The notes: generated by a model not told the origin, from the sequence alone. A DNA stretch of 64,000 nucleotides from an uncultured Spirochaetaceae bacterium (GCA_964654185.1 CAZZIE010000001.1:391-64390), one strand, 5' to 3'; positions 25,207 through 54,064 are shown, counted from the first letter of the stretch. Program-made: numbers and translations.

Positions 25207-25415
25207 ACGCCATTTGTTCGACGAAACGGGCGAGTGCTCGACCAGACGGTCGAGCCCAGCAGAATAAACCTGACTATGAGATTCTGAAATAGCGGTATTT
25301 GGTTATAATTGCTTTTATCTCCATTATTATTAGGTAGGCCGGATAAGTTATTGTATTGTAAAGGCTTATGCGGCGCCCTCCTTCGTCTGCGGCGAAGATA
25401 CCTCGATTGGGAGCC

Positions 25416-25431
25416 TGGCACGATTGTTGCT
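25416..25431 (+). promoter_or_regulatory. sigma-54 (-24/-12) promoter
   Basis: TGGCAC-gattg-TTGCT is an exact match to the consensus TGGCAC-N5-TTGCW. It lies about 50 nt upstream of the pilin ATG and downstream of an AT-rich tract. Confidence 0.8.
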
Positions 25432-25479
25432 ACTTAAGGGGTAGAAACGGACGACGAGTCGTCCAGGAGGTAAGAGATT

Positions 25480-25977: not shown

Positions 25978-26111
25978 GTCGAAATTCACAGTGAGAGGGC
26001 TCTCACGCCAGGTGGTATAGACGCCCGGCAGGTGGTCTGAACATCTGCCGGGTGTTCTGAACATCCGGCAGTGAGGAACCTCCCGGTTGATCGTCGATAA
26101 GGAGCGCAGAG

Positions 26112-29463: not shown

Positions 29464-29475
29464 GGAGGTGACCAC

Positions 29476-40200: not shown

Positions 40201-41664
40201 GCGGACCGGCAGGTTCGCGCCGGAGCCCTCTCCGTCGCGTACGATGCAGCCGGAAACGTCACGCGTCGCGCCGTTGGAGCGGCCGCTCTGGAGTACGACT
40301 ACGACGCCCGCCACCGGATGACCCGCATCCACGGGCGCACCCCGGAGGGCCGCGATATCGATCTGCGCTACGGCTACGACGCCCTGGACCGCCGGTCGTA
40401 TCGCCTCGATGTGCCTTCCGGTGACCGTACGGAGTCCGCGACGGCGGGGACGGGCGGACCGGCCGCGACGGCGGCGCCCGGGACGGCAACGCTGGAGAGA
40501 GCGGTCTACCAGGGCTTCTCCTTCATGCGTCTGGCTACGCTGGAGGCGCATGGAGTCGGCAGCGTGCAGGGTGATTTTTCCGGCGTGGATGCGCCGAGCC
40601 TTCCCGGCCGGCTCCCGCGACCGAAGCCGCGGCGCGGCGCCGGTCCGCGATCCCGCGTCGACGCAGGGCAGGGCGCCGCAGTGTTGACCCGACTGGAGAT
40701 GGCGGCGGTGGCCGTTTCCGTGCAGCAGGTTCCCGCCGCTGTGGTATCGCCCCGGCAGGTCAGCCACTTCGGGGTGGATGTGCTCGGGAGCGTAACCCTT
40801 CGCGTGACGGCGCACGCGAGTGCCGCAGGCAACCGTGCGGCCGGGTCGACCGGTGCAATCGTGGAGGATCTGGCGTACCGCGCCTTCGGGGCGGTACGGG
40901 CCGGTGACGTTCGCGGTGCCATACCCTTCGGCTACACCGGCAAGGTCGTGGACGTCGCAACGGCGGTCTACGATTACGGCCTGCGAGACTACGCGCCCAG
41001 TACCGGCCGATTCACCACGGTGGACCCTCTACGGGCCGGCACGAACTGGTACGCCTACGTTCACAACGATCCGATCAATCTCATCGACAGGTTCGGCCTG
41101 GAGGCCTCCGTCCCCGGCAACCCGGGTCCCGGCGGCTTTCCCCTCGATCCTTCGGTCCAGGTCTTTCGCAGCGACGGTAACATCGACCAGCTGGCATTCG
41201 ACCAACGCTACGGCTTCGGCACCATCGCCGGCACACAATCCTGTCAGTCCGTCGCGGTCTGCAATCTCTACGCCCAGGAAACCCCCGGCGGCATGACGGT
41301 CGAGCAACTCGACGTCGTGGTTTCGGTCAGCCTCTCCTCCGGCCACCTGGAAGAGGAAGGCGGCTCCGTCACCGACTTTTCCGGCCTGAGCCGAACCATT
41401 GCAACGGAGCTCGATCGCGACGACTATTATGAATACGTGTACCCGGCACCGGACTACGAGCGCCTAACAATGTCTGAACACGACTTCGAACAATCCGACG
41501 CGGCCGCGGGGGTGGTGCAACTCTACAACCCTCAATATGACGTGAATCACTTTGTGACCCGGAGTCGCGATCGCACATACGATCCTCTACCCTCGTCTCG
41601 ACCGACAGCTTCGGGGTATGTCGTAGAAGAGGTTCGTCCACTTCAACTTCTGGATCTTCACTAG
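34225..41664 (+). CDS. RHS/YD-repeat polymorphic toxin with signal peptide, TSP3-like repeats, coiled-coil insertion and an unassigned C-terminal domain
   Basis: ATG at 34225 overlaps the upstream stop (TGATG). The hydrophobic N-terminus ends in ADAS. DGDGDGIPDGADNCPG...DSDGDGTGDACD is a thrombospondin-type-3-like Ca-binding repeat. GDPVALATGTFF is a plug motif. Dozens of YD repeats follow (YxYDxxGRL type). The RHS core end is DPLRAGTNWYAYVHNDPINLIDRFGL, followed by about 187 aa of lower-GC sequence. Confidence 0.9.
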   Translation: MGRLGLVTAIWGVGMCAIVAVERADASTCTKPVVCWDGSCVYFSDQCPPEPPPDDGPSDGDGDGIPDGADNCPGTANAGQADSDGDGTGDACDSTPHGGSGGGGSGGGGSGGGAGGSDEFDGVVNSRGEIDDALDHADGNLDESDDYFDIPSSLDTAVPGAKGDLEDITDPADGSLSKVQNEADDLDSAVTAGEKALEEFDDPVGSADKLSESHVEITSVDVPALESAAGELALTAGIGGGGAVANHGAAADYIAAGVHYESVSGAAEEVAEAAAESREILATMTEGATAATDALVDTERTYAAERGGDPVALATGTFFTQETDLAVATPAQVLLRLPEELPGLGVLAARTPGADNSLAGAAAAAAGDATLIFRRYYNSSAGSGHAGGTVAIDGVTGAAGSTGTLGPGWRHSFQSRLFIGYDGVTAAEVRELQERSSRAATRVREARDTLEDARRSAASAVEGYRDSLELAEALAVGWRDLRDAALAAAEEGAELRRAAGEADEQVAPSHAASAEELVARADEIEASLAELDDRFSGLIRRADRAERNAESARSSYQAVIDFVDGLLVEWNSDQDARASATAGVTTALDQRDRAAEHEESLRNRVSSIADALAKVEDLGTDELDRVSALRDRTEHVLSVTGVFPDDPAAYAPYVRAQAGYREAVELRDGLLPTGLAAAEQRLRAIETEGPVIIGTMEESREVTEAVAEDAGNRSDYAVSAARRNGALPSGADPGATGMGTFTVIGADGAPRLFRTGAEPAFAGPTSIGDGLVHYYRRDVTAHPDAPGDYGRLIVRRDGSYILEERNGTEHRYDAYGRLTGVTARGGAAVTLEYEGLGEGGRLRRVVDDAGRTLALQYDRDRLVEVAGPDGAAVRYGYDGQGRLHSVTDPSGRTRHYRYRGHLLTFIGTPRHVAASAEAPSGGGAAAPDHADGPGRRYNYERRDGRDVVTWTEDEAGHRELFSYHPGESPYGAGYTKHTGYHDWTEAGAAVTTRTHYDTNLRTVRREWLNSDGVVAAWESFVHDAAGNVVRREAGGDGVRRVWRFAYDGDGNLVARIDPDGVEESWEYDADGNVTAHTNGAGETTRLTCDASGRLTGAHYPTGAAFRYRYDTEGNLTEIRRLLNGRWHATRLVYGRHGYPTSVEYPDGATAALRHDAYGRPAAHISRLGLATEDRRGPAGRLLERSYADGSAEVFRYDAAGNLTETKDRLGHVTRYEHDPRGLVTSVFRERIVDVETGANTVDARTYRYRADGRLAERRAGRREGGESAQWRYDYDYRGRLIREEETTTGTLTRYAYDAAGNLVERATEPTGVAPAGAGTGAAAGAGAGAAGVPATARTFVTKYGYSPAGRLEWTENGAGERTRFDRDGAGEVTAAIDPAGHRTRIRRDTAGRTILTTAVPGAPPEVRRFDEAGHLIELSDPDGSTWRYEYDPAGRIRRESAPDGGETTYTYRHLTPGMEVTRTDPLGNDWVLRFDAAGRRIGAVDPTGAETSFERDAAGRITTVIDAHGNRRSYVYDAVGNVLARMDAYGNGRTFTYDALGHPASVTLPTGETTRFGYDALGRRRWIEEPLGNRTHFTYDVAGNLLATETPMGLTRRFTYDAAGRAVARIEPDGATYRYEYDARGRTTGEIDPTGSVRRYEYEENARGNLIAEVNRLGARRTISYGAAGRIDSMTDFNGVLHDFDYDPAGRLIREVAEGEVVRAFEYDVRGDLVRAASPAAALEFDYDERGLLVESRDRDAEVAVAYEYDAAGRRTRVLTEGYEIATSYGAMGEVREVAFDDGSAFGAGEGRIRLEYDESLRERVRRFAGSLVAERHYDEAGRLAGVVHRGGGGVAGEVLDAEAYVYDRDGRRIYTVDEAGGLTAYRYDTAGRLAAALYPHEDGVVASHLRQLKAVGMVSPPAQADRLGTIGAATGSRGGSRGSSVAVAGRITIPSEERDLIREVTEQVLPRRKGGTFLSREMWGESFTYDERGNLTGVATPLGTIGFAYDAADRQVRAGALSVAYDAAGNVTRRAVGAAALEYDYDARHRMTRIHGRTPEGRDIDLRYGYDALDRRSYRLDVPSGDRTESATAGTGGPAATAAPGTATLERAVYQGFSFMRLATLEAHGVGSVQGDFSGVDAPSLPGRLPRPKPRRGAGPRSRVDAGQGAAVLTRLEMAAVAVSVQQVPAAVVSPRQVSHFGVDVLGSVTLRVTAHASAAGNRAAGSTGAIVEDLAYRAFGAVRAGDVRGAIPFGYTGKVVDVATAVYDYGLRDYAPSTGRFTTVDPLRAGTNWYAYVHNDPINLIDRFGLEASVPGNPGPGGFPLDPSVQVFRSDGNIDQLAFDQRYGFGTIAGTQSCQSVAVCNLYAQETPGGMTVEQLDVVVSVSLSSGHLEEEGGSVTDFSGLSRTIATELDRDDYYEYVYPAPDYERLTMSEHDFEQSDAAAGVVQLYNPQYDVNHFVTRSRDRTYDPLPSSRPTASGYVVEEVRPLQLLDLH

Positions 41665-41700: not shown

Positions 41701-42603
41701 ATGGATCTGGTAATGCGAATCGTGCTGTTGGGTCTCTTTGCTTCAGTTGTCACGGCAGCAACTGGAGCGAAGGAACTCCATCTTGTGCCTGTCGACGGCG
41801 GGCGCCTCATCATGGGATCTGAGGAGGGAGATGACAACCCACTACACGAAGTTGTTCTTTCAAGCTTCATGATGGCAGAGCGAGAGATCACGGTCGGTGA
41901 GTTTCGAGAGTTCACCGTCGCCGAGGAGATACCGTTTCGATGGACGTCGTATAACTTCACGCAGTACGTGGGCCGACCCGCAGGATATGTGATCCCCGAC
42001 GATCGCGCCATGTATTTCGTTATGTGGTATGAAGCGGTTTGGTATGCGAATTATCGGAGCGAGTTGGAAGGGCTTGAGAAGGCCTACGGGTTCGACGAAC
42101 AAGCTTTGCGCGACTATTTGTACGACTTTCGCGAGGGTCGCGACCCTCCCAGCATAGAGTGGGACCGCAGTGCAAACGGGTACCGTTTGCCAACAGAGGC
42201 AGAATGGGAGTTTGCTGCGACCGACCGAGGGCAAGCTCGTACTGTCACTGATGAGTTGCTCCTACGCAGGTCGTGGGTTCGTGAGAACGCCGACGGTAAG
42301 GTGCATCCTGTGAAGGCGAAGGTACCGACCGAACTGGGGTTGTACGACATGTTGGGTAACGTATCGGAATGGTGCTGGGACTACTACGACTCCAGGTACT
42401 ATGACCGGTCGCCGGTTCGCGACCCCACCGGTCCAGCAACGGGGGAGGAATTGTCGGTCTTTCCTGGGCGCAAAGACATTCGGGTATTCCGCGGTTGTTC
42501 TTGGCGAACTCCGCTCAATTTCTGCGGACCTCACGAAAGAATGGCAACTATTGCACCGAATCGAGGCACCATCGGCATCCGCCTTGTTCGGAATGCGGAA
42601 TGA
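41701..42603 (+). CDS. secreted FGE-sulfatase (SUMF1/C-type-lectin-like) fold protein, in the immunity-gene position
   Basis: 300 aa with an N-terminal signal/TM segment (IVLLGLFASVVTAATGA). FGE-sulfatase family blocks are present (GYRLPTEAEWEFAA, GLYDMLGNVSEWCWDYY, VFRGCSW, GIRLVRN). GC is about 50-55%, clearly below the flanks. Confidence 0.8.
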   Translation: MDLVMRIVLLGLFASVVTAATGAKELHLVPVDGGRLIMGSEEGDDNPLHEVVLSSFMMAEREITVGEFREFTVAEEIPFRWTSYNFTQYVGRPAGYVIPDDRAMYFVMWYEAVWYANYRSELEGLEKAYGFDEQALRDYLYDFREGRDPPSIEWDRSANGYRLPTEAEWEFAATDRGQARTVTDELLLRRSWVRENADGKVHPVKAKVPTELGLYDMLGNVSEWCWDYYDSRYYDRSPVRDPTGPATGEELSVFPGRKDIRVFRGCSWRTPLNFCGPHERMATIAPNRGTIGIRLVRNAE

Positions 42604-42816
42604 ACTCTATGTTCCCTTGATGCAGCACGCACTGCTGAGCGGTCGGGTCTGCTTCTGGGGCAGGATCTGCCGGCGGCTGTGCTGAAGGGCCGGCAAGACT
42701 CTACCGCACCCAGTGGAAACGGCGTACATTCCGGCATTACGTTGGATTCTGGCGAGCGGTAGGGTTCCCGGGTCCAAGAGAGCCAGTACGTCCCGGCGCC
42801 GCACCGGCCGAAGAGG

Positions 42817-43554
42817 ATGGATTGCATGGTAGGCGTTCGAGTCGGGACCTCCGGGTGGAACTATCCGCACTGGGAAGGGCCATTCTATCCGGAGGGACTG
42901 CCGGCGACGAAGTGGTTTGAGCACTATCAGCGGCACTTCGATACCGTCGAGATTAACAACACTTTCTACAATCTGCCGAGCCGCCAGACTGCCGCAGCGT
43001 GGCGGGACCAGGCTGCCGAAGGTTTCCTTTACACCGTGAAGGCGAGCCGGTACATCACGCATATGAAGAAGCTCAAGGATCCGGCCGACACAACGGAGCG
43101 GCTCTTTGATCGCCTCCGGATCCTCGAAGACACGGTCCAGGTCGTGCTCTTCCAGCTTCCGCCCCGGTGGAAACGGAATACGGCGCGGCTCGCCGACTTT
43201 TTGCGCCATCTCCCGGCGCAATGGAGGTACGTCTTCGAGTTTCGTGACTCCTCCTGGTTTCATGACGATGTGTACAATCTTCTGAGGGAGCACAACGCTG
43301 CATTCTGCGTTTTCGAGCTTGGAGAACTGGAATCCCCTTTGACGGTGACTTCCGACACGGCGTACATCCGCCTCCACGGCCCGGCGGGGAAGTACCAGGG
43401 GAGCTACGATCGGAAGACACTGTCCGCGTGGGCGCGCCAATGCCGCTCCTGGGCAGCGGAAGGACTGGATGTCTGGGTGTACTTCGACAACGACGACCGC
43501 GGGTACGCCCCCCGGAATGCCCTGACTCTCAAGGAGATGGTTGCGGAGTTGTGA
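42817..43554 (+). CDS. DUF72 (YecE-like) family protein
   Basis: The N-terminal VRVGTSGWNYPHWEGPFYPEG ... FDTVEINNTFY signature is typical of DUF72. The start may be ATG 42826. Confidence 0.75.
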   Translation: MDCMVGVRVGTSGWNYPHWEGPFYPEGLPATKWFEHYQRHFDTVEINNTFYNLPSRQTAAAWRDQAAEGFLYTVKASRYITHMKKLKDPADTTERLFDRLRILEDTVQVVLFQLPPRWKRNTARLADFLRHLPAQWRYVFEFRDSSWFHDDVYNLLREHNAAFCVFELGELESPLTVTSDTAYIRLHGPAGKYQGSYDRKTLSAWARQCRSWAAEGLDVWVYFDNDDRGYAPRNALTLKEMVAEL

Positions 43555-43643
43555 GCGCCGGCGAGCCCCGGCGCCCCTGTGCATTTCGGCGCCGGGTGCC
43601 GTGATGGTTGGTGCGGACGCGGGGAGTCGCGTAGACTGGGTGC

Positions 43644-44240
43644 ATGGAGTCGATACTGATTGCCGGGGTGCCCCGGTCGGGCAAGTCTACCATTGCGCAG
43701 CGGGTTGCGGAGGCCGGCGGAGCAACCTACTTTCCTGTTGATGCCCTGGTTTCAACCCTGGGCTCGCTCTATCCGGAGCTGGGGATTACTCATTACACGG
43801 AGGAGCCTCGTGGAGTGAGCACCCATCTGGCGCCGGTCGTTGTGGAGCTGCAGCAGCATCTGCAATACGAGGGCATGACGGTGGTGCTGGATGCGTACCA
43901 GTGCTTTCCCCGGGATCTGGCGGCGGCGCTGAAGCACCGGCGGCTTGCCCTGCCGACGGGTGAGGGAGCAGGGGAGGCGCCCTTCGGAGTGGTGTACGTG
44001 GGGTATCCGGAAGCCGACGTGAAGGGCAAGACCAGGGACATAAGGGCTCACGCCCGGGTGGAGGACTGGGCGCAGGCGCTGGACGACGCCGCCCTGGAGA
44101 ACCTGGTTGAGCGGTACATCCGGGAAAGCGGCGAGATCAAGAGCCAGTGCGCCGACCTTGGATGGCACTTCATCGACACAAGCAGGAGTTTCGAGGCAGT
44201 GGTGTCCAAGGCGGTTGAGCAGCTCTCCCCGACGCTGTGA
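43644..44240 (+). CDS. P-loop NTPase/kinase-like protein
   Basis: 198 aa with Walker A at the N-terminus (IAGVPRSGKST). Otherwise unassigned. Confidence 0.5.
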   Translation: MESILIAGVPRSGKSTIAQRVAEAGGATYFPVDALVSTLGSLYPELGITHYTEEPRGVSTHLAPVVVELQQHLQYEGMTVVLDAYQCFPRDLAAALKHRRLALPTGEGAGEAPFGVVYVGYPEADVKGKTRDIRAHARVEDWAQALDDAALENLVERYIRESGEIKSQCADLGWHFIDTSRSFEAVVSKAVEQLSPTL

Positions 44241-44302
44241 CTGCCCGACGAGTGTGACAAACCCGCGTTACCGTTGATATGCTGGGGGTGAGGTGATGCG
44301 TC

Positions 44303-44659
44303 ATGGCGACGGTTCGCGTTAAGCAGGACGAGCTGCGAGTCGAGTTGGACGGCGTTGATACTCTGTTGGCGTTTCAAGGCAGCTTTCGCGTTCCTCTGGA
44401 GCACATTCGGGGAGCAACCACCGAAGCCCCTCCTCTGGAGCGAGTCTATAAGGGCATTCAGAACATCGGCACACACATTCCCGGTCTGGTCGCCGCGGGA
44501 ACCTACTACACCGCGGAGGGTCGGATCTTCTGGGATGCGAGGATCGGTCAGGAGCTCGTACGCATCGATCTTGAAGATGAAAGGTACGATGAGCTCATCC
44601 TCGGCGTGGCGGATGCCCGCGAAGTTGTCCGGGAGATCCATCAGACCTTGAACGCCTGA
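44303..44659 (+). CDS. hypothetical small protein
   Basis: 118-aa ORF with a GGGGTGAGG RBS region and coding-like composition. No motif recognised. Confidence 0.4.
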   Translation: MATVRVKQDELRVELDGVDTLLAFQGSFRVPLEHIRGATTEAPPLERVYKGIQNIGTHIPGLVAAGTYYTAEGRIFWDARIGQELVRIDLEDERYDELILGVADAREVVREIHQTLNA

Positions 44660-44770
44660 GACTACGAACGCGACGGTCTACAATCCGACACGATCTCCAA
44701 TCCAACGTAGTTAACCCATTCGTGGTATTCCCAAACGGCTGGTTTCGGCTATCGTGAGGCAGGACAACAT

Positions 44771-46492
44771 ATGCGAAATCGGCGAATCGAGAAGGCCCCG
44801 GTCGGTATTGAGGGCTTCGACTTCATAACCGGTGGCGGGCTGCCCAGGGGACGCTTGACCCTCGTTACGGGCCCCGCCGGCAGCGGTAAGACGATATTCG
44901 GAGTTCAGTTTCTCGTTCACGGAGTTCGGGATCACGGCGAGCCCGGCGCTTACGTCGGGTTCGAGGAAACCGAAGAGGAGTTGCTCGACAACTTCGGCAG
45001 CTTCGGCTACGGCCTGGAAGAGCTGACCGGTGCGAACAAACTCCTCCTGGATCACATTGAAGCCTTTCCACTCAACACCTCGGAGGCGGGGGACTACGAT
45101 CTGGACGGGCTCTTCGTACGTCTGGATGAGACCTTGAAGAGCGTCGGGGCCAAACGGCTTGTTCTGGATGCATTTCCCGCACTCTTCGCCGGCTTCACGA
45201 ACACTCAGGCGGTGCGCTCGGGACTCATGCGCCTGTTCAGCTTTCTGAAGAGCCGGGGTGTCACCGCAATCGCAACGGCGGAGAGCGCCACCCAGGTCGC
45301 GCGGTACGGACTCGGGCGGTCCCTTTCGGACTGCGTCATCAACTTTGACACGACCCTTCACGGTCGAATTGCCACCAGGCACCTTCGCGTTGCCAAGTAC
45401 CGCGGTTCAATGCATCACGACGATGAGTTTCCCTTCCTGATCTCCAACAACGGCGTCAGGGTGATGCCGGTGACCTCAGTGCACCAGGATTATCCGGTTT
45501 CCCGGGAAAGGATCACCACCGGAATCCCGAGCCTGGACGCAATGCTCGGCGGTGGTGGCTTCTACCGGGGCAGCAGCATTCTCGTGTCCGGTGAGGCCGG
45601 GACAGGCAAGACGAGTATTGCCGCCCATTTCGCACGGTCCGCCTGCTTGCGTAACGAGCGCAGCCTCTACTGCGCCTTCGAAGAGGCCGCGGACGAGGTT
45701 GTTCGCAACATGTCGTCGATAGGTCTGAACTTTCCGGAATGGATTGATCAGGGGCTGCTGAAAGTCTTCGTCTCCCGGGCAACCCGCCACGACCTGGAGG
45801 TTCACCTCGCCAACCTGGAGGAAGCCGTCGTTGAGTTCCGCCCGACGGTCATGGTGATCGACCCGGTATCGAATCTCCTGCGGGCGGGTTCTTTCGGAGA
45901 CGTGGCGTCAATGATTTCGCGGCTGGTTGATTTCCTGAAGTCGCACGGTGTTACCGCCATGTTCACCGTCCTGAGCAAGTGGGGCGGTGGCGAGTACCAG
46001 GAATCCATTGATATCTCCTCGGTCATGGATGCCTGGATTCAGCTGCGAAATCAGGAGGCGAGTGGTGAGCACACCCGGCTTCTGTCGATTGCGAAGGCGC
46101 GGGGAATGCCCCACTCCAATCAGGTTCGGGAGTTCATGATTACGGAGAATGAAATTCAACTGGTCGATGTATACGCCGCCGGAGGCGAAGTTCTGACCGG
46201 CTCGGCGCGGGTTGCCCGACTGGAAGCGGACCGCCGGGACGCGATCCGGCGGCGCCTGGAAGTGGAACGGGCCGAGCGGGAGCTGGCGAGCCGCAGAACG
46301 GCCATTGAGAAGCAGATAGCTGAACTGAAAGGGGAGCTCGAACAGATCGAGGAGGACTACAGGTACAGCCGCCTCTGGCATCAACAGGAGGCGGCATCCC
46401 ACGAGAGTGAGCGGAACCTGGTTGCACGGGAGCGCTGGGCGGAGGGAGCGATGGAGGGGGCGAGTGGCAAAGACGACGGGAAGTCGGAGTGA
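44771..46492 (+). CDS. kaiC: KaiC-family double RecA-like ATPase with a C-terminal coiled-coil extension
   Basis: Two KaiC domains: Walker A GPAGSGKT plus catalytic FEETEEE, and Walker A GEAGTGKT plus FEEAADE. DISSVMD aligns with the cyanobacterial phospho-site segment (ISTITD). The last ~90 aa are heptad-like and charged (RLEADRRDAIRRRLEVERAERELASRRTAIEKQIAELKGELEQIEE). Confidence 0.85.
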   Translation: MRNRRIEKAPVGIEGFDFITGGGLPRGRLTLVTGPAGSGKTIFGVQFLVHGVRDHGEPGAYVGFEETEEELLDNFGSFGYGLEELTGANKLLLDHIEAFPLNTSEAGDYDLDGLFVRLDETLKSVGAKRLVLDAFPALFAGFTNTQAVRSGLMRLFSFLKSRGVTAIATAESATQVARYGLGRSLSDCVINFDTTLHGRIATRHLRVAKYRGSMHHDDEFPFLISNNGVRVMPVTSVHQDYPVSRERITTGIPSLDAMLGGGGFYRGSSILVSGEAGTGKTSIAAHFARSACLRNERSLYCAFEEAADEVVRNMSSIGLNFPEWIDQGLLKVFVSRATRHDLEVHLANLEEAVVEFRPTVMVIDPVSNLLRAGSFGDVASMISRLVDFLKSHGVTAMFTVLSKWGGGEYQESIDISSVMDAWIQLRNQEASGEHTRLLSIAKARGMPHSNQVREFMITENEIQLVDVYAAGGEVLTGSARVARLEADRRDAIRRRLEVERAERELASRRTAIEKQIAELKGELEQIEEDYRYSRLWHQQEAASHESERNLVARERWAEGAMEGASGKDDGKSE

Positions 46493-46778
46493 GCCCTGGC
46501 GGTTCGAGCTGTACGTTGCGGGTACCTCGCCGAAGCAGCAGCTCGCACTCCGAAATCTCACGGACATCTGTGATGCCGCACTCGGTACGGACTACACCAT
46601 CGACGTCATTGATATTCTCGAGCATCCCGGATTGAGCAGGGAACGGCAGATCCTCGCGACACCGACGGTGATCCGGATCACTCCATTGCCGGAGCGACGG
46701 ATTGTCGGAGATCTCACCCAGCGTGATGCGGTGTACCGCGGTCTGGAGCTGCCCCGGCTGCAGGAGGATCGCGTCTAG
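46464..46778 (+). CDS. kaiB: KaiB-like thioredoxin-fold protein
   Basis: About 104 aa from GTG 46464 (GGAGG 6 nt upstream), overlapping the kaiC 3' end. It has the KaiB signature ELYVAG.SP.S..A..NL..IC ... IDVIDILEHP....E.QILATPT. Confidence 0.8.
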   Translation: MAKTTGSRSEPWRFELYVAGTSPKQQLALRNLTDICDAALGTDYTIDVIDILEHPGLSRERQILATPTVIRITPLPERRIVGDLTQRDAVYRGLELPRLQEDRV

Positions 46779-46791
46779 TAAAGCGGATTAC

Positions 46792-47772
46792 ATGAGTATC
46801 ACCCTGAGAAGCGCTCTCGAACAAGCAGAACCCAATCTCAACCGAGTCTTGTACCAACTTGCCGACGGCATTCTCCTGGTGGATAAAGAGGGGATTGTCG
46901 TCTATGCCAATCCGGCGGCGGAGAGCCTCTTCGGCTATGAGAGTGGCAAGATGGAAGGGTGCATGCTTGGCTATCCGGTGATCGCAGGGATGGCCGAGGT
47001 AGAGATTCCTCAGGACGATGGTAACATTGCGGTGGCGGAGTTTCGCTCAGTGGAAATCACCTGGCGCGATCGTCCGGCGTACCTCGCGAGTTTTCGCGAC
47101 ATTACTCAGCGAAAGAACGCGGAGAAGCGGGTTGCTGCCCTGAGCAAGGCGCTGGTAAGCGCGTATGAGCGGGCGCAGCGGGAAATCGGCCATGAGCTCC
47201 ACGACGGCGTCGGACAGATGCTGCTGGGCGTCCGTCTCTCCCTGGACAGCGCCCGCCGGGCCGGAGCGGACGAGATGCCGCAGCGCCTGGAGAAGCTCGG
47301 CACCATGGTGGATGAGATCGTTGCGGAGCTCAGACGCATGTCCCATGAGCTCAAGCCGGCGGTTCTGGACGACTTCAGCTTTCTGGAGGCCCTCCACAGC
47401 CACCTGGAGCGCCTCCGCGACGAGACCGGCCTGGAGGTCGAGTTCACCCACCGCGGCCTTTCGGGGCGCAACACCGACATGGTGGAAACCGTCGCTTTCC
47501 GCATCATTCAGGAGGCGCTGACGAATGTCATCCGCCACGCGGACGTCGCCCGTGCGACCCTCCTGGTGGAGGAGGTGGATGATGTCCTGCGTCTCCGCAT
47601 TGCCGACAGCGGCAAGGGGTTCGAGGTAGCCGACCACTCGGACGCTTCCATCGGCTTGCGCGGCATGGCCGAGCGGGCGGAGCTGATCGGGGGTACCTTC
47701 GAAGTCGCATCCGCCACGGGCCGCGGTACCGCCATCACCGCCGTGCTCCCTCTCACTGATTCGGCACGGTAA
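46792..47772 (+). CDS. PAS-domain sensor histidine kinase (HisKA_3/NarL-partner type)
   Basis: 326 aa from ATG 46792. PAS-like N-terminus (GILLVDKEGIVVYANPAAESLFGY), an H-box HELHDGVGQ, and an HATPase_c domain (ADSGKGF ... GLRGMAERAELIGG). Confidence 0.85.
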   Translation: MSITLRSALEQAEPNLNRVLYQLADGILLVDKEGIVVYANPAAESLFGYESGKMEGCMLGYPVIAGMAEVEIPQDDGNIAVAEFRSVEITWRDRPAYLASFRDITQRKNAEKRVAALSKALVSAYERAQREIGHELHDGVGQMLLGVRLSLDSARRAGADEMPQRLEKLGTMVDEIVAELRRMSHELKPAVLDDFSFLEALHSHLERLRDETGLEVEFTHRGLSGRNTDMVETVAFRIIQEALTNVIRHADVARATLLVEEVDDVLRLRIADSGKGFEVADHSDASIGLRGMAERAELIGGTFEVASATGRGTAITAVLPLTDSAR

Positions 47773-48709
47773 GATTTCCGATCCGCCGCAGCACGGCGAC
47801 GTATCCTTCTCGGTCCACCTCCATGATCGCTGTTACGTGTTCCCCTTCACATCGCACGCTCGCACCGCGCAGCGTCGACTGATTCAGCTCCATGCGAAGG
47901 CCCATGATGCGGCGAGTACGGTGAATGGTCGGGGCCAGGGCGCATGCCATGGCAATTGGATCGGGATGCATGGCGAAGGGCGTTCCGTACACCCGCTCCG
48001 TCCGGCGAAGCACGAACTCCTGAAGCTTCCAGAAGAGATCGGTCCCCGGCCCCGGGGGAAGCCCGAAGGACTTCATCTCCTCGGCGGTGAACCTGAGCGA
48101 GACGCAGGCGTCCCAGGGCACCACCTCCATGGGAATCCCCGCGTTCAGGACGAACTGCACCGCCTCCGGATCGGCGTAGAAATTGAACTCAGCGAATCGA
48201 GTGATGTTGCCCGTCTCGATTGCGCCTCCCATGACGACCAGCCGCCCGATATTCTCCTGCAGGTCGGGATGAAGATTCAGGGCAATGGCGAGATTCGTCA
48301 GCGGCCCCAGGGTCACGAGCGTCGCTCCCGGATGCGCCTCCAGGAGCCGGGCGAGGGCCGTCGGTGCCGGGTCCGGTCGGGCGGACTGCCCGGGGGCGTT
48401 CACAGGCGCCGCCGGAAGCTCTATTTCGCCGAGGCCGTTCTTCCCGTGCACTCCTTCGGCGCGGACCACGCCCTCCAGGAGCGCCTTCGTCGCGCCTCGA
48501 TAGACCGGCACGGCATCGTGGCCGAAGTAGGCGAGGAGGCGGTGTACGTTTTCCGTCACCTGCTCCACCCCGACGTTTCCGTTTACCGTGGTGACACCGA
48601 CGAGCTCCGCCTCCGGTGATGCCAGGAGCATCATGATGGCGACGGCGTCGTCAATGCCGCAGTCCGTGTCGACAATGTAGGGCGTCCGGGCGCCGTCGGG
48701 TCCGTTCAT
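47753..48709 (-). CDS. inosine/uridine-preferring nucleoside hydrolase family protein
   Basis: The N-terminal YIVDTDCGIDDAVAIMMLL (DxDxxxDD) motif and the length (318 aa) fit the IUNH family. Confidence 0.85.
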   Translation of the reverse strand: MNGPDGARTPYIVDTDCGIDDAVAIMMLLASPEAELVGVTTVNGNVGVEQVTENVHRLLAYFGHDAVPVYRGATKALLEGVVRAEGVHGKNGLGEIELPAAPVNAPGQSARPDPAPTALARLLEAHPGATLVTLGPLTNLAIALNLHPDLQENIGRLVVMGGAIETGNITRFAEFNFYADPEAVQFVLNAGIPMEVVPWDACVSLRFTAEEMKSFGLPPGPGTDLFWKLQEFVLRRTERVYGTPFAMHPDPIAMACALAPTIHRTRRIMGLRMELNQSTLRGASVRCEGEHVTAIMEVDREGYVAVLRRIGNLTVPNQ

Positions 48710-48772
48710 GCTCCTGAGCGTACCATGGCGACGGCGGGCGTTGAAGCAGCAGAGCGGATGCGCGTGTAGATC

Positions 48773-51409
48773 ATGACTGCAATGATCTTCCTGTCATACG
48801 TACTCGACATGGATGCCGGCCTTCCTGTGCTGCTCTCCATCTTCACGCGGAGCCTTCCTTTCGGTGCGCTCGTACCGGCGGTGGGGGTGGACGTAGCCGA
48901 GCGGCGTCTCCCGACACCGTGGCTCCGGGCAGCCGCCGGCGCCGCGGTGGTCCACCCGCTGCTCCTGCTCGCTGTGGCCAACGGCGCCGTGGCTCTCCTC
49001 GCTGCCCTCGGCGCAGCCATGGGCGCCGCTCTCGGCGCCGCAACCTGCTACGCCGTGCTTCGCCTTGCCGGCGCCCTTTCCGGCATCGGTCGGGGAGACC
49101 TGCGGCTGGGTACGGTTCTCGGCCTGGGAACGGGCTTCCCCTCCGCGTTCTTCGCCCTCGCCGCGGCCACCGCCGCGTGCGGCGTCTTCATGGCGGCACG
49201 CCGTCGGCGGGTCACGGCGTTCGGCCCCTTTCTGGTCGGCGCCTACGCCGCCGCCGTCGCCTTGGTCGCTCCGGCACCCCTGGCCGCAGCGCCGGGATCC
49301 GCGCCGACGGAGCCTCTCGGCCCGGAGTCGGTCATCCCGGAAATGGAGTTTCGCAATGAAGCGGTGGCGTCCGTTCTCCTGGTCCTCGGGCACGCTGCCG
49401 GCAGGAGCGTTCTGCCCGACGCTACCGTCACCGGCACCGCCTCCTACTACTTCCGGGAGCGCAGCTTCGACGCCGCTCTGGCGGCCTTCGCCGAGGCGCA
49501 GGACCTCTTCGTGGAGGATCGCGACGGGACGCTTCACGTCTCCCGGGTGTACGCGGCGCGACACGCCGACGGCGCGCTGACCGTGCGCGCCCGGGAGGTG
49601 CCTCTGGGCACGCTCCTCGATCGCATTGACCGGGTTACGGGGGTGCCGGTGACCCACGCGGGCGTTGCGGGCATGCGCGGAAGCGTTCATGCAGAGCAGC
49701 TCCCGGTGGAGGCGATTCTGGAGGCGATCGCGGCGCCCCACCCGGACCTGGCGGTGCGTGAGGTCGGGCCGGGCTACGTGGTTGCGCCGCCGGAGCGCCG
49801 CGAGCTGGAAGCGTCGAAAGTGCAGGTCGGTGTGGGACCCGAAGGCCTGGATGTGGTGATCCGCGACGCCGACTTCGCCCGGGTGTTGGAGTCACTCGCG
49901 GAAGCGAGCGGGATGCAGTACTTGAGCCTTCTGCGGCGCTCCCCGGTCATCGCCGATCTTGCGCTTTCCGGGGTCGAGCTTCCGGAGGTGGTGCGGGCAC
50001 TCGCCTTCGCCGCAGAGGCGACTGCGGTGAAGCGGGAAGGGCGCTGGCTCTTTCTTCCGGGTCGTACGGCAACGCCGCAGGATCTTCTGGCCGTGACGCT
50101 GATTGTTCATCTGGAGCACGTGCCGGTGCGGCAGGTTCTGGAGCAGGTGCCCCGGCAGCACGCCGCCTCTGCGAGCCTTGCCGCCGTTCCGGGGGAGAAC
50201 GCCGTCGCAGTGACCGGACTGCCCGACGAGCTGGAACCGGTCCTGGCGTACCTGGCAATCATGGACCGGGAGCCCGCCGGGATTGCGTATCACCGCTTCG
50301 ATCTGAGCTACGCCGATCCCGCGGAGATCCTTGCCGCGCTGCCGGCGGGAATACCCCGGGAGCACGCCGTCGTGCTCGAAGAGACAAATGCCCTCATGCT
50401 CCGGGTGACCGACTCGCAGCGGGAACGGGCCGCGCGGTTCATTGCCGACATGGACGTGAGCCCCCGGGCGGTAGCGGTGAGACTGCAGCACACCGAGGCC
50501 GCCGTAATCATCGACTCAATGCCGGATACGATTCCTCTCCGGTACGTGCACCGCACCGGGGATGCGAAGCTGCTGCTCTTCACCGGGCCTCCTGAGGTCG
50601 AGGCGCGCCTGCGGGAGCTTCTGGCCGCGGTGGATGCGCCGGCGCCGCAGATCCGCTACGACCTCTTCATTGTGCAGTACCAGGAGGGTAAGAGCGTCGA
50701 CTACCGGCTGTCGATCGAGAGCGTCGAGGTGCGCCCCTTCGACACGGCCATCCTGCTCGGCCGCCTGGGCGAGTTGCTCTCCCTCAGCGCCGACGTCATC
50801 TCGCTCTTCGGGCACCGCTTCGCCGTCTCTCTGAGCAGCGCCCTCAGCAACAACGAGGCGCAGGTCCTTGCCGACACGTCGGTGACGACGCTCTCCGGCA
50901 CGCCGGCCTCATTCCGCAACACCGAGACCTATCGCTACCGAGATGTTCCGCCGGCAACCGACGAAGACGCCGGGCCGGTCGGTGTGACGAGGGAGATCAC
51001 CTCAGGACTTTTTATCGATATCGATGGGGACGTTGTCGGCCCCGACGAGGTGGCTCTTTCGATAGCCGCCACGGTCTCCAAGCGCGGCCGCGACGTCGGT
51101 GACACCTCGGGGAACCCGCCGCCGACGGCGGAGCGCGTGGTGACCAGCACGCTCCGGGCGCGGTCCGGGCGGCCCATCGTGGTGGGAAGCTTCCTCCTCC
51201 GCGACCGCACCCGGAGCGTCCGGCGCATCCCGATTCTGGGGCACATCCCGGTCCTGGGCTGGCTCTTTCGCGGCGTGCAGTCATCCAGCGAGGAGTCGGA
51301 GCTGGTGGTCTACCTGGTGCCTCACGTTCTCACACCGCCGGCGCAGCTATCGACGGAGGAGCAGCTCCGGGCGATTCACGCGGCGTGGAAGGCGGGAGCG
51401 CCGCGGTGA
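48773..51409 (+). CDS. single ORF joining an A24 prepilin-peptidase-like membrane domain (about aa 1-170) to a secretin (GspD/PilQ-like)
   Basis: N-terminal part: VGVDVAERRLP (first Asp motif), GIGRGDLRLG (GxGDxK/R-L motif) and AFGPFLVGAY (C-terminal motif). Then come N0/N1-like periplasmic repeats (MEFRNEAVASVLLVLGHAAG...). The C-terminal secretin core is SNNEAQVLADTSVTTLSGTPASF ... RIPILGHIPVLGWLFRG ... ELVVYLVPHVL. There is no in-frame stop between the parts. Confidence 0.75.
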   Translation: MTAMIFLSYVLDMDAGLPVLLSIFTRSLPFGALVPAVGVDVAERRLPTPWLRAAAGAAVVHPLLLLAVANGAVALLAALGAAMGAALGAATCYAVLRLAGALSGIGRGDLRLGTVLGLGTGFPSAFFALAAATAACGVFMAARRRRVTAFGPFLVGAYAAAVALVAPAPLAAAPGSAPTEPLGPESVIPEMEFRNEAVASVLLVLGHAAGRSVLPDATVTGTASYYFRERSFDAALAAFAEAQDLFVEDRDGTLHVSRVYAARHADGALTVRAREVPLGTLLDRIDRVTGVPVTHAGVAGMRGSVHAEQLPVEAILEAIAAPHPDLAVREVGPGYVVAPPERRELEASKVQVGVGPEGLDVVIRDADFARVLESLAEASGMQYLSLLRRSPVIADLALSGVELPEVVRALAFAAEATAVKREGRWLFLPGRTATPQDLLAVTLIVHLEHVPVRQVLEQVPRQHAASASLAAVPGENAVAVTGLPDELEPVLAYLAIMDREPAGIAYHRFDLSYADPAEILAALPAGIPREHAVVLEETNALMLRVTDSQRERAARFIADMDVSPRAVAVRLQHTEAAVIIDSMPDTIPLRYVHRTGDAKLLLFTGPPEVEARLRELLAAVDAPAPQIRYDLFIVQYQEGKSVDYRLSIESVEVRPFDTAILLGRLGELLSLSADVISLFGHRFAVSLSSALSNNEAQVLADTSVTTLSGTPASFRNTETYRYRDVPPATDEDAGPVGVTREITSGLFIDIDGDVVGPDEVALSIAATVSKRGRDVGDTSGNPPPTAERVVTSTLRARSGRPIVVGSFLLRDRTRSVRRIPILGHIPVLGWLFRGVQSSSEESELVVYLVPHVLTPPAQLSTEEQLRAIHAAWKAGAPR

Positions 51410-52959
51410 CCGGCACGGACGACCGGCCGCGGCGTCTCGCTGAGTTCGGCGAGCTTCCCGGTGAGGAGGAGCAGTATCCCCTGAGTTTCTGCGAACGCCA
51501 CCGGGCGGTGCTGCTCCGGGAGGGAACGCCGGGGGCGGACCCGCCGGGGAAGGGCCTGCCGGGGAAGGGCCCGCCGGGGGCGGGCGCGCTGGTCGGCGTG
51601 GCGGCGCCGGTTCCGTCCTACGTGGAGGAGCGGTTGCGACGACTCCACGGCGGGCCGGTAACCGTCGTTCCCCTGGCACCGCAGGATGTCTACCAGTTCC
51701 TGGCGGAGCGGCGGCTTCATCGGGAGGACGCGCGCCGGCAGCGCCGGGTGGCAAGGCGGAGTGCAGCCGTGCGCGACGGTGCGGGCCCGGGTCCGCGCTC
51801 CCTGGGATTGACTGCGAATGATGCGAGAGGCGGAGAAGTCACTGTCGGAGGCGCCGGTGAGGCGTTTCTTCAGGGCATTCTCGACGAGGCGGTGCGTACC
51901 GGAGCTTCGGATGCCCACCTCATGGCCGGTTCCGCCGGCGTCTCTCTTCGCTTTCGCCGGGAGGGCGCTCTCGGAGAGGCGCGGGCGGTGCCCCGGGAGC
52001 TCACGGCGCGTCTCGTCGCTCGGCTGAAGGTGCGGATTCGAGGAAACCCCGGACAGCGCCGTAAGCCCCAGGAAGGGCGCTTTGGCTTCACCGTGCGAGG
52101 CACCGTCTACGAGGTTCGCGCCTCCATTCTGCCTGGCCTCCACGGAGAGAGTGTGTCCCTGCGCTTCCTGCGGACCTTCAAAGGTGGCATCTCCCTGGAC
52201 GGCCTCGGCTTCCCCGGTCGGATCGTCACGCTCCTGAACGGGGTCGCAGAGCGTACCGACGGTCTGTTCCTGGTAACGGGCCCGACAGGAAGCGGGAAGA
52301 CCACCACTCTCCACGCCGTTGCCCGGCTCCTGTGCCGGCGCGACCGTCGCGTCGTCACCATTGAGGATCCCATTGAGTACGAGCTCCCCGAGGCGGTGCA
52401 GCTGCAGACGAACGCGCGATTGCACCTCACCTTTGACCTTCTGCTGACCAAGGCGCTGAGACACGATCCGGACGTGCTCCTTCTCGGCGAGATTCGGGAT
52501 GCCGAGACCGCGGCCCTGGCGGTGCGCAGCGCCCTTACCGGTCATCTGGTCCTTGCAACCATGCACACCGGCACGGTGTTCACCGGCATCCTGCGATTGC
52601 GCAACCTCGGCGCGACATCCGATGAGGTCGCCTCGGCCCTCTGCGGCGTACTCTCTCAGCGCTTGGTTCGTCGTGTGGGGATCTCCCCGGTGGGTGCCTC
52701 CCCGGTGGGTGCCTCCCCGGTAGGTGTTCCCCCGGTGGGTGACACGCGACAGGCGTCCGCCGACGGGCGGATTCCCATCTGTGAGGCCCTCATTGACCCG
52801 ACGGACCCGACGAATTTCGCACCGGCAGGACGATTCGTTGAAGCAGTGGGACGGGATTGGCTGTACCTCGATATGAAGGACGATGCCAGGCGCCTCGTCT
52901 CAGCCGGTGTAACCACCTGGGAAGACGTGGCGCGTGTTGCGCGAATTGGAGGCGTGTGA
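51406..52959 (+). CDS. gspE: type II/IV secretion ATPase (GspE/PilB family)
   Basis: Walker A GPTGSGKTTT, Asp box, Walker B LLLGEIRD, His box ATMHTG. GTG at 51406 overlaps the secretin stop (GTGA); an alternative GTG is at 51385. A (SPVGA)x4 insertion is encoded by 15-bp repeats at 52684-52743. Confidence 0.85.
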   Translation: MTGTDDRPRRLAEFGELPGEEEQYPLSFCERHRAVLLREGTPGADPPGKGLPGKGPPGAGALVGVAAPVPSYVEERLRRLHGGPVTVVPLAPQDVYQFLAERRLHREDARRQRRVARRSAAVRDGAGPGPRSLGLTANDARGGEVTVGGAGEAFLQGILDEAVRTGASDAHLMAGSAGVSLRFRREGALGEARAVPRELTARLVARLKVRIRGNPGQRRKPQEGRFGFTVRGTVYEVRASILPGLHGESVSLRFLRTFKGGISLDGLGFPGRIVTLLNGVAERTDGLFLVTGPTGSGKTTTLHAVARLLCRRDRRVVTIEDPIEYELPEAVQLQTNARLHLTFDLLLTKALRHDPDVLLLGEIRDAETAALAVRSALTGHLVLATMHTGTVFTGILRLRNLGATSDEVASALCGVLSQRLVRRVGISPVGASPVGASPVGVPPVGDTRQASADGRIPICEALIDPTDPTNFAPAGRFVEAVGRDWLYLDMKDDARRLVSAGVTTWEDVARVARIGGV

Positions 52960-54064
52960 TGCGGATGAGAGGGACGTGATGGGCGTGATCGGATCACGGC
53001 TCACGGCACGAGAGCGAGAGAATCTCTACGCCGGACTCGCGGGTGCGGTGCGCCTTGGCGCAACCGTGGAGGCTGCACTGCACGGATGCAGAGCGTCGGG
53101 CGACAGCGCCCTGGCGCGTCGACTTTCCGCCGCACAGCGCCACGCTGAGGAGGGGCTGACTCTCTCCGAAGCACTCTCCGCCGGCTTCGGACCCGCGCTG
53201 CCCGGGTGGGAGATCGCCGTCATTGCTGCCGCCGAAGGCGTCGGGGAGAGCCGCACGCCGGAGGATGGGCCGGGTGAGACCGTTGTGGCGGAGGTGCTGG
53301 AGGGCCTTTCCCGATACGCCGCGGCGGAGAGCTCTGCAACGGGACGGTTGGCGCTTTCCTTCGGCTACGCCTTCGCGGTGTTGCTCCTCCTGGCCGCACT
53401 TTCTGCGGCAACAAGGTGGCTTGTGCTCCCCTCCGTCGAGACGGCGGTCGTTGCCTTCGCCGCCGGGCCCGGAACCTCCCTGGATGGGGCGCGGAGGGCC
53501 GCCCGGACGCTCCCGCTTGTCATTGGAGGCGTCCTGGTGCTTGGAGTTGCCGTGCCGGTCGGTCTACGCGCCGGAGGAAGCTCGTTTCGGTTGCGCCTTC
53601 TCGCCCTTCTTCCTCGGTCGATTGCCGGCACGCTGGCGGGAGTCCTGCCCCGGAGCGCGGCGCTCGTGCGGGTCCTCCGGATCGCGCTCCGGGCCGGTGG
53701 CGACCTCCTGGACGCCGTGGATCTGGCGCTGCGCGTTGCCCTTCCCGGAGCGGATCGCCTGGACCGGGACCTTTCGGGCGCAGCGCAACGCGGAGGGTCC
53801 GTCTCGAAAGTGCTGGCCCTCCACGGCCTACTCCCGCCCGATCTGGCGGAACGGCTCGCTTCCGCGGAGCGCTCCGGCGGGATCGAGACGGCCCTTGCGG
53901 GTGTTGAGGCGGAGCTGGAGCGGCGCAGAGACACGCTCCTGGAGGCGCTGCCCGGCATCGGCGCTGCTGCGGCCACAGCAGTGTGCGGGGTCCTCCTGGG
54001 ATGGTTCGCCCTCGCGGTGGTGGTACCGGCGCTGACCGCCCTGGCAGCGGGTGCTCCGCTATGA
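52934..54064 (+). CDS. gspF: type II secretion system F-family inner-membrane platform protein (GspF/PilC-like)
   Basis: Two T2SSF-like helical repeats and 3 hydrophobic segments. It sits between the ATPase and pseudopilin genes. The start is ambiguous (GTG 52934 or ATG 52979). Confidence 0.65.
   Translation: MLRELEACDADERDVMGVIGSRLTARERENLYAGLAGAVRLGATVEAALHGCRASGDSALARRLSAAQRHAEEGLTLSEALSAGFGPALPGWEIAVIAAAEGVGESRTPEDGPGETVVAEVLEGLSRYAAAESSATGRLALSFGYAFAVLLLLAALSAATRWLVLPSVETAVVAFAAGPGTSLDGARRAARTLPLVIGGVLVLGVAVPVGLRAGGSSFRLRLLALLPRSIAGTLAGVLPRSAALVRVLRIALRAGGDLLDAVDLALRVALPGADRLDRDLSGAAQRGGSVSKVLALHGLLPPDLAERLASAERSGGIETALAGVEAELERRRDTLLEALPGIGAAAATAVCGVLLGWFALAVVVPALTALAAGAPL

Follow-up and report, generated by a model that had tools for sequence, protein, structure and literature searches.

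Organization of the kaiC-kaiB-kinase locus

The 64-kb stretch of DNA analysed here, from an uncultured Spirochaetaceae bacterium and termed the window (all window searches cover that span alone), carries at positions 44771-47772 three + strand genes, kaiC, kaiB and a gene for a histidine kinase (HK), read in the same direction (Table 1). These genes form a real kaiC-kaiB-histidine kinase operon in a spirochaete and constitute an ordinary, well-preserved module of the KaiC2 / KaiBC_RS type, the suffix RS denoting the proteins of Rhodobacter sphaeroides. The departures of the locus are modest and comprise the spirochaete host, the HisKA_3 core of the kinase and the lack of a linked receiver. The kinase gene starts 13 nucleotides (nt) past the kaiB stop codon, and the start of kaiB lies inside the 3' end of kaiC, creating a 29-nt overlap that suggests translational coupling. 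The GTG start codon of kaiB, contained in an open reading frame (ORF) that extends over 46407-46778, is located 6 nt past a GGAGG sequence (46453-46457) and is backed by a relative (66% KaiC and 62% KaiB identity) whose called KaiB N-terminus is the same and whose kaiB also overlaps kaiC. A first-pass annotation, made from the sequence alone, had placed all three genes at these coordinates, with kaiB beginning at GTG 46464 after GGAGG within kaiC and the kinase beginning 13 nt after kaiB; the ORFs, the Pfam matches (PAS, HisKA_3 and HATPase_c in the kinase) and the relative's called start bear out every one of these positions. A terminator scan found no intrinsic terminator across 43400-48900. 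The sigma-70-like promoter match 5' of kaiC is a weak lead, since the scanned region holds four promoter-like sites where 0.9 would be expected and a match to the consensus is not evidence of function.

Table 1. Features of the kai locus and of the comparison loci (window numbering unless another locus is named).
Feature	Position	Strand	Description and basis
kaiC	44771..46492	+	573 amino acids (aa), ATG 44771, TGA 46490-46492; double-domain (CI + CII), KaiC2 / R. sphaeroides type
CI Walker A GPAGSGKT, residues 34-41	44870..44893	+	G34, G37, G39 and K40 invariant in alignment A1 (98 sequences)
CI catalytic Glu-Glu, E65 and E66	44963..44968	+	both invariant in A1
CII Walker A GEAGTGKT, residues 274-281	45590..45613	+	motif and A1 alignment
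CII catalytic Glu-Glu, E304 and E305	45680..45685	+	both invariant in A1
Ser416-Ser417 in DISSVMD, predicted autophosphorylation sites	46016..46021	+	aligned with KaiC_RS S413/S414
C-terminal tail helix, residues 477-560, predicted coiled-coil stalk	46199..46450	+	AlphaFold2, KaiC_RS alignment, family profile
kaiB	46464..46778	+	104 aa, GTG start, stop 46776-46778; Pfam KaiB E 7e-24
PAS + HisKA_3 + HATPase_c histidine kinase, soluble	46792..47772	+	326 aa, ATG 46792; Pfam, NCBIfam and PDB matches
Kinase N-terminal PAS, ~residues 10-108	46819..47115	+	Pfam PAS, PAS_8, PAS_9, PAS_4; NCBIfam sensory_box; approximate boundaries
His137 codon, H-box EIGHELHDGVGQ (EIGHELHD), predicted phospho-acceptor	47200..47202	+	motif reading
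Sigma-70-like promoter match CTGAGA-17-TACAAT, 5' of kaiC	44656..44684	+	consensus match, weak lead
P-loop NTPase gene, 198 aa, module membership uncertain	43644..44240	+	weak AAA_18/AAA_33 matches below Pfam cutoffs
Stand-alone NarL-like receivers, no DNA-binding domain	L031:7026-7445; L032:7040-7438		next to the kinase
REC+GerE (receiver plus DNA-binding) NarL-type regulator	L020:2443-3249		ends the Nitrospirales module

KaiC of the R. sphaeroides type and its partner KaiB

Pfam KaiC (PF06745) matches the window KaiC in two stretches (E 3e-100). The general NCBIfam KaiC model (NF006799, cutoff 408) gives 600 bits, and the cyanobacterial equivalog TIGR02655 (circ_KaiC) scores 305.7 bits, under its cutoff of 546.25. 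The nearest solved relative by sequence is the KaiC of R. sphaeroides, KaiC_RS (8DBA, E 5e-154, 518 bits), with cyanobacterial KaiC at ~290 bits. The alignment to KaiC_RS spans residues 6-547 of the window protein, most of the tail included, and displays 47% identity over 537 aligned residues (48% in CI, 50% in CII and 31% in the tail). The AlphaFold2 monomer model (predicted local distance difference test, pLDDT, 84) presents two RecA-like domains followed by a single uninterrupted helix, and a Foldseek search with this model returns at its top ranks 8FWI, 8FWJ and 8DBA, the coiled-coil dodecameric KaiC of R. sphaeroides. The alignment to characterised KaiC groups that had been proposed as a check on the first-pass annotation thus gives R. 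sphaeroides KaiC as the best match, both by sequence and by predicted fold.

The catalytic motifs of the window KaiC are intact and are invariant across the 98 KaiC homologs of alignment A1, which served both for the conservation counts and for the AlphaFold2 model. The two Walker A boxes, the two catalytic Glu-Glu pairs and the Ser-Ser of the DISSVMD motif, all read earlier from the sequence, hold good and now carry residue positions (Table 1). The positions of Ser416 and Ser417 are occupied by Glu-Glu in the phosphomimetic structure 8FWI, and Ser-Ser is found at this phosphosite in 95 of the 98 homologs. The clade corresponds to the kaiC2 subgroup, where two serines replace the Ser-Thr of KaiC1 and KaiC3 (PMC5520375, PMC10076222). 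The best 120 database matches are nearly all 560-595 aa long, and thousands of KaiC homologs of this length are present in the database. The second-best match, P0002 (954 aa), was considered as a KaiC fusion and rejected: its own residues from ~190 to the C-terminus recur verbatim, which points most probably to a sequence doubled during assembly or gene calling and not to a KaiC with three domains.

KaiB is recognised by Pfam PF07689 at 83.9 bits against a cutoff of 27. It matches the KaiB proteins of the PDB with E values of 5e-19 to 1e-14, including KaiB_RS (8FWJ_M, E 6e-18) and fold-switching cyanobacterial KaiBs.

The C-terminal tail of KaiC

The tail helix is modelled with pLDDT values of 80-92 up to ~residue 540, and the last 13 residues (561-573) are disordered in the AlphaFold2 model. 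The hydrophobic core of the predicted stalk is formed by residues 498, 505, 512, 516, 519, 523 and 530, and positions 505, 512, 516, 519, 523 and 530 are near-invariantly hydrophobic in the 98 homologs. A single heptad register is kept over ~residues 478-535, and the column hydrophobicity profile of the homologs displays a strong 3.5-residue periodicity that is reached by 7 of 5000 shuffles. Asp, Glu, Lys and Arg account for 46% of residues 480-573 against 22% of the rest of KaiC. Measured from the invariant G477, the tail is 96 aa long in the window protein, with a family median of 90 aa. The alignment with S. elongatus KaiC stops at residue 494 of the window protein, which pairs with residue 507 of the 519-residue chain, and the extension past the cyanobacterial C-terminus amounts to ~55-65 aa, near the ~50 aa given for the clade (PMC10076222). 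Judged by the sequences of the homologs, the extended tail is a feature of the KaiC family and not of the window protein alone.

The first-pass annotation had described a tail of ~90 aa, heptad-like and highly charged. Its length stands when counted from the start of the helix and shrinks to ~55-65 aa when counted beyond the end of cyanobacterial KaiC; its high charge stands as well, and the heptads are marginal in the single sequence and clear in the family profile. The accompanying statement that extended C-terminal coiled coils can replace KaiA matches what has been published for R. sphaeroides KaiC (PMC10076222). In KaiC_RS two hexamers are held together by a coiled coil of 12 helices built from the extended tails (Pitsawong et al. 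2023, PMC10076222), an arrangement that exposes the A loop and leads to fast KaiA-independent autophosphorylation, phosphorylation being followed by a shift in the register of the coil (PMC10076222). KaiB_RS associates with ADP-state CI, where it makes hydrolysis faster, resulting in an hourglass driven by the ATP/ADP ratio (PMC10076222). By homology, the window KaiC would likewise assemble into a tail-joined dodecamer.

The PAS-HisKA_3 kinase

Pfam recognises the HisKA_3 (PF07730, cutoff 24) and HATPase_c (PF02518) domains of the kinase at 44.5 and 44.3 bits, respectively. The N-box EALTN (residue 241), the G1 box DSGKG (272) and the G2 box GLRGMAER (288) are all intact, and the hydropathy maximum of 1.2 (19-residue Kyte-Doolittle window) leaves no transmembrane or hydrophobic segment. 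Thus, the kinase looks soluble and catalytically competent. Its HisKA_3 core is nearest to MctS, UhpB, LiaS, NarQ, DesK and VraS in the NCBIfam and PDB matches, the latter including DesK and VraS. The kinase contains no KaiB-like docking domain of the SasA type, Pfam KaiB and the NCBIfam SasA model NF006800 matching the KaiB protein only, and direct reading of the PAS sequence revealed no recognisable cofactor motif. The kinase had been assigned earlier to the NarL-partner class, unlike SasA; the HisKA_3 core confirms this class, and the N-terminus is a PAS domain.

The kinase shares with DesK, NarQ/NarX, LiaS/VraS, UhpB and MctS the ELHD H-box of the dimerization and histidine phosphotransfer (DHp) domain and, in the catalytic domain, the N, G1 and G2 boxes. 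In contrast to these HisKA_3 sensor kinases, it scores far under the NCBIfam equivalog cutoffs (142 against 700 bits for MctS), is soluble with a single PAS, is tied to kaiBC and has no adjacent NarL-type regulator.

Conservation of the module in spirochaetes

The nearest genome locus, L001, belongs to an uncultured Spirochaetaceae metagenome-assembled genome (MAG) and encodes KaiC, KaiB and kinase proteins 80%, 80% and 85% identical to those of the window. Relatives with 66% KaiC identity (L024-26) keep the full order of RHS, FGE-sulfatase-like, DUF72, P-loop, kaiC, kaiB, kinase and secretion cluster, the latter being type II secretion / pilus-like. At 53% KaiC identity (L027 and L029), kaiC, kaiB and the PAS/HisKA_3 kinase are retained with overlapping genes. 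Synteny of the three-gene module thus extends over relatives with KaiC identities of 53-80%, and the relatives of the kinase at 85%, 66% and 43-45% identity always come after kaiB. The kaiC/kaiB and kaiB/HK junctions overlap or abut in the window, L001, L024, L027 and L029, the overlap of kaiC with kaiB being kept in L024-26, L027 and L029. Because the three genes and their overlaps persist in relatives down to 53% KaiC identity, they are regarded as a stable unit of the spirochaete lineage that is probably translationally coupled. A literature search for KaiC in spirochaetes found nothing relevant.

Kai-linked kinases and receivers across phyla

The comparison set comprised loci L002-L022 and L027-L034, of which L030-L033 were obtained through a kinase-centred metagenome scan. 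The gene 3' of kaiB is consistently a PAS kinase across the phyla sampled and its phosphotransfer core varies. HisKA cores are present in the Kai modules of Sporomusaceae, Bacteroidia, Flavobacterium and one uncultured bacterium, as well as in a hybrid kinase-receiver of Aliirhizobium; an HWE_HK core is found in Bradyrhizobium, and HisKA_3 cores in Chloroflexia, Nitrospirales and the spirochaete clade. HisKA_3 kinases accompany both tail-bearing KaiC (L030, L031 and the spirochaetes) and tail-less KaiC (L017, 487 aa; L032, 488 aa). Full-length relatives of the window kinase (29-38% identity) adjoin kaiC-kaiB in all four testable metagenome loci (L030-L033), and the more distant HisKA_3 kinases of the same scan are not Kai-linked.

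In L030-L033 the kinase has as its neighbour a stand-alone receiver (132-139 aa) with ~37% identity to the receiver domain of NarL, and the module of Nitrospirales (L020) ends in a NarL-type regulator. These neighbours support the view that the Kai-linked kinase passes its phosphoryl group to a receiver of the NarL family. As related modules (L020 and L030-L033) carry a receiver, its absence from the spirochaete loci is considered lineage-specific. The Nitrospirales regulator fits the expectation of the first-pass annotation that an unlinked NarL-type partner exists in the organism of the window. The stand-alone receivers are also reminiscent of the N-termini of KaiA3 and KaiA, which resemble receivers; in KaiA3 a receiver of the NarL type is joined to a KaiA-like domain (PMC11372060).

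KaiA, NarL and CheY probes were compared with the window by tblastn. The KaiA probe gave nothing below E 0.19, no Pfam KaiA match was obtained in the scanned neighbouring and larger ORFs, and a receiver-bearing KaiA3, which would show with the receiver probes, was not detected in the window. Thus, the locus is KaiA-less and the organism presumably is as well; the tail-bearing KaiC clade is known to do without KaiA. The earlier claim that no kaiA is present holds within the 64-kb window, its whole-genome part lying beyond that span, and the receiver probes bear out the claimed lack of an adjacent response regulator. The sole receiver domain of the window belongs to an NtrC-type sigma-54 activator (23812-25206), which lies 20 kb away and was rejected as an implausible HisKA_3 partner. 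Similarly, a KaiA3-like gene was sought in the flanks of a HisKA_3-linked Kai module of Chloroflexia (L017), chosen since KaiA3 occurs in Chloroflexi, and none was present.

Comparison with characterised Kai systems

The module resembles most closely the KaiBC system of R. sphaeroides (8DBA, 8DB3, 8FWI and 8FWJ), sharing a double-domain KaiC of ~570 aa with Ser-Ser and an extended C-terminal helix, a kaiB directly downstream, no kaiA nearby and an operon PAS histidine kinase. It differs in KaiC identity (47%, and 31% in the tail) and in its host, a spirochaete and not a purple phototroph. The three-gene order, the predicted single operon, the lack of KaiA and a proposed proto-circadian/hourglass function are also common to R. 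palustris (Ma et al. 2016, PMC4794148). The kinase core is HisKA_3 in the window and HWE_HK in the Bradyrhizobium loci, the nearest stand-ins here for the purple alphaproteobacteria; the window kinase has 326 aa and one PAS, in contrast to the 495 aa and two PAS of the HWE-type Bradyrhizobium kinase.

With the cyanobacterial KaiABC system and its SasA and CikA outputs, the module shares the KaiC fold, the Walker A boxes, the catalytic Glu-Glu pairs and the KaiB partner. Unlike that system, it lacks KaiA within the window, carries Ser-Ser where cyanobacterial KaiC has Ser-Thr and has a tail extension of ~55-65 aa; its kinase is without the KaiB-like thioredoxin-fold domain by which SasA docks on KaiC CI and belongs to a different DHp class, the core of SasA being HisKA. 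Legionella pneumophila, whose KaiBC is reported as a stress-response system in work cited in PMC5520375, possesses a comparable KaiA-less, KaiC2-type pair outside phototrophs, and its KaiB Lpp1115 (4KUN) matches at E 1e-14.

The first-pass interpretation fits a published and structurally characterised system, since both the KaiC_RS mechanism and the operon have been described, and it underestimated the precedent. A kaiC-B-PAS/HK operon is on record for R. palustris and R. sphaeroides (PMC4794148), the kaiBC clusters of R. rubrum are flanked by PAS histidine kinases (PMC10931921), and KaiC homologs of similar length number in the thousands.

Neighbouring genes

The 198-aa P-loop NTPase gene that precedes kaiC, considered like the 118-aa ORF described below as a candidate additional part of the module, obtained no Pfam or NCBIfam family assignment and no significant PDB match; its weak matches are nucleoside/nucleotide-kinase-like. 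Relatives of this protein are 74% identical in L001 and 49% in L024-26, the gene ending 20 nt before kaiC in L024 and being absent from the 53%-identity relatives L027 and L029. A nucleotide kinase beside an ATP/ADP-driven timer would be suggestive. Between the P-loop gene and kaiC lies a 118-aa ORF (44303-44659, +) without a Pfam or NCBIfam family, which is 76% identical over 85 aa in L001 only and is absent from L024; a promoter-like site (44254-44283) is positioned just 5' of it.

Further upstream, a giant + strand ORF (33811-41664, 2617 aa) contains YD/RHS-type repeats and a distinct C-terminal region, possibly a polymorphic-toxin tip. Its equivalent in L024 matches Pfam RHS_repeat, TEN_YD-shell and DUF6531 in a syntenic arrangement, and in the window it is followed by the FGE-sulfatase-like gene (41701-42603). 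The G+C content is 60-62% from the FGE-like gene via DUF72 and kaiCB to the kinase (42000-48000), whereas the RHS and secretion genes on either side reach 69-71%. A recent transfer of this low-G+C block is unlikely, since the 66%-identity relatives show the same gene order.

The last 20 nt of the kinase gene (47753-47772) are shared with the 3' end of a gene for an inosine-uridine nucleoside hydrolase, which lies on the minus strand (47753-48709) and converges on the kinase gene. The secretin ORF that lies beyond it (48773-51409, +, 878 aa) begins with a long hydrophobic Ala/Gly-rich stretch, and the corresponding region of L024 holds two genes, one for a prepilin-peptidase-like protein (158 aa) and one for the secretin (740 aa). 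Because two separate genes occupy this region in L024, the window ORF may be a fusion, or its mechanically assigned start may lie too far upstream. The type II secretion E and F genes (51385-54064) are located downstream of the secretin.

The NtrC-type activator, read from its sequence as receiver, AAA and helix-turn-helix domains, adjoins a probable chaperone-usher fimbrial cluster, the two together covering 23812-30399 (+). A small subunit (25480-25977), a chaperone-like protein (26112-26852) and an usher-like protein (26839-29463) are guessed from sequence, and ORF 29476-30399, the sole ORF of the cluster that was scanned, has a match to the domain of Spore Coat Protein U (SCPU).

Proposed mechanism and alternative explanations

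The locus probably encodes a KaiB-KaiC system of the R. sphaeroides (KaiC2) type that works without KaiA as a phospho-timer or energy-state switch and is co-transcribed with a dedicated cytoplasmic PAS-HisKA_3 kinase. The CI and CII ATPase rings would build KaiC hexamers, and the ~85-residue C-terminal helices of two hexamers would pack as a coiled-coil stalk, resulting in a dodecamer. This stalk would hold the A-loop region exposed, in a kinase-on state, allowing CII to autophosphorylate Ser416 and Ser417 without KaiA. The overlapping start would lead to KaiB being made in fixed proportion, and KaiB would bind the post-hydrolysis (ADP) state of CI and speed ATP hydrolysis, so that KaiC dephosphorylates as the ATP/ADP ratio falls. 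The outcome would be an hourglass reset by an environmental or metabolic cycle rather than a self-sustained oscillator, and homology to KaiC_RS makes such an ATP/ADP-driven hourglass or energy-state switch function likely, in the same way as it points to the dodecamer, the autokinase activity and the action of KaiB. The kinase would couple the KaiB-KaiC state to gene expression, its linkage, and only that, suggesting its role and partner. Its PAS would most likely dock KaiB or KaiB-KaiC (output), or sense a redox or metabolite signal (input), and the kinase would phosphorylate a NarL-family receiver whose gene lies in another part of the genome. If the kinase reads the Kai state, it would most plausibly do so through this PAS, since it lacks the SasA docking domain and since there is a precedent in KidA, whose PAS domains bind fold-switched KaiB (PMC9478674).

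Several observations weigh against this interpretation. The support is based on sequences and models, and a monomer AlphaFold2 model cannot show a dodecamer. The 3.5-residue periodicity of the window tail by itself is marginal, being reached by 277 of 5000 shuffles, the tail shares the low 31% identity with that of KaiC_RS, and KaiB, at 73.7 and 69.3 bits, stays under the cutoffs of the two NCBIfam KaiB equivalogs (110 and 145.3, respectively). No NarL/LuxR-family receiver was found in the window, nor beside the module in L001, L024, L027 and L029. The PAS domains of the Kai-linked kinases were compared as possible orthologs and show weak blastp similarity between phyla (E 0.003-0.05), and a conserved Kai-docking PAS is therefore not claimed. 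The spirochaete host is probably non-phototrophic, with no obvious daily ATP/ADP cycle, and KaiC2-type proteins of Legionella and Pseudomonas serve stress resistance and not timing, according to work cited in PMC5520375 and PMC11372060.

The latter points lead to an explanation in which the same proteins act as a stress or energy-state switch, KaiC phosphorylation reporting the ATP/ADP ratio or oxidative/osmotic stress and the kinase relaying it, with no timekeeping. Such a role has been proposed for the KaiBC proteins of Legionella and Pseudomonas, the window of this Spirochaetaceae MAG contains no photosynthesis genes, and even KaiBC_RS is driven by ATP/ADP rather than free-running (PMC10076222). 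However, the nearest characterised homolog behaves as an hourglass timer (PMC10076222) and KaiC contributes to the fitness of R. palustris when light and dark alternate (PMC4794148), which renders a pure switch unlikely, even if timer and switch share their biochemistry and are inseparable by sequence data. The direction of signalling may also be reversed, with the kinase as an input sensor whose PAS perceives redox, oxygen or a metabolite and which modulates KaiB-KaiC directly or via a receiver, thereby resetting the hourglass. PAS domains typically serve as sensors, the PAS-HK of the R. sphaeroides operon has been suggested to convey a redox signal to KaiBC (PMC5520375, PMC10931921), and the NarL-type receiver of KaiA3 has no known cognate kinase (PMC11372060), making a route from HisKA_3 to Kai conceivable. 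This option is retained as a tentative one, as the window PAS displays no recognisable cofactor motif, no KaiA3-like or receiver protein occurs in the window or beside the module in close relatives (the NtrC-type activator aside), and the DNA-binding regulator that ends the Nitrospirales L020 module is output-like. A self-sustained circadian oscillator without KaiA is highly improbable: the characterised tail-bearing homolog autophosphorylates fast and constitutively and works as an hourglass that needs an external ATP/ADP change (PMC10076222, PMC11372060), no component for delayed negative feedback was identified, and the sole support comes from the damped ~24-h rhythms that, according to the account in PMC7205874, persist in kaiA-null Synechococcus.

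A broader proposal, decidedly unlikely to hold in all its parts, would join these elements. The PAS-HisKA_3 kinase would be the dedicated read-out of a KaiBC hourglass, its PAS docking KaiB or KaiB-KaiC and its signal passing to an unlinked NarL-family receiver, within a metabolic timer of a non-phototroph. The stand-alone receivers of L030-L033 could then be the evolutionary source of the receiver-like N-termini of KaiA3 and KaiA, and the HisKA_3 kinases the missing cognate kinases of KaiA3.

Biological significance

The locus overturns nothing in the current understanding of Kai proteins and represents a preserved example rather than a new system. It extends the family of coiled-coil, KaiA-independent KaiC hourglasses into Spirochaetota. 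Across the modules compared, the kinase core is exchangeable (HisKA, HWE or HisKA_3) while the order kaiC-kaiB-PAS-kinase stays, and the Kai-linked HisKA_3 kinases, together with the neighbouring receivers of related loci, are concrete candidates for the output pathway of non-cyanobacterial Kai systems.

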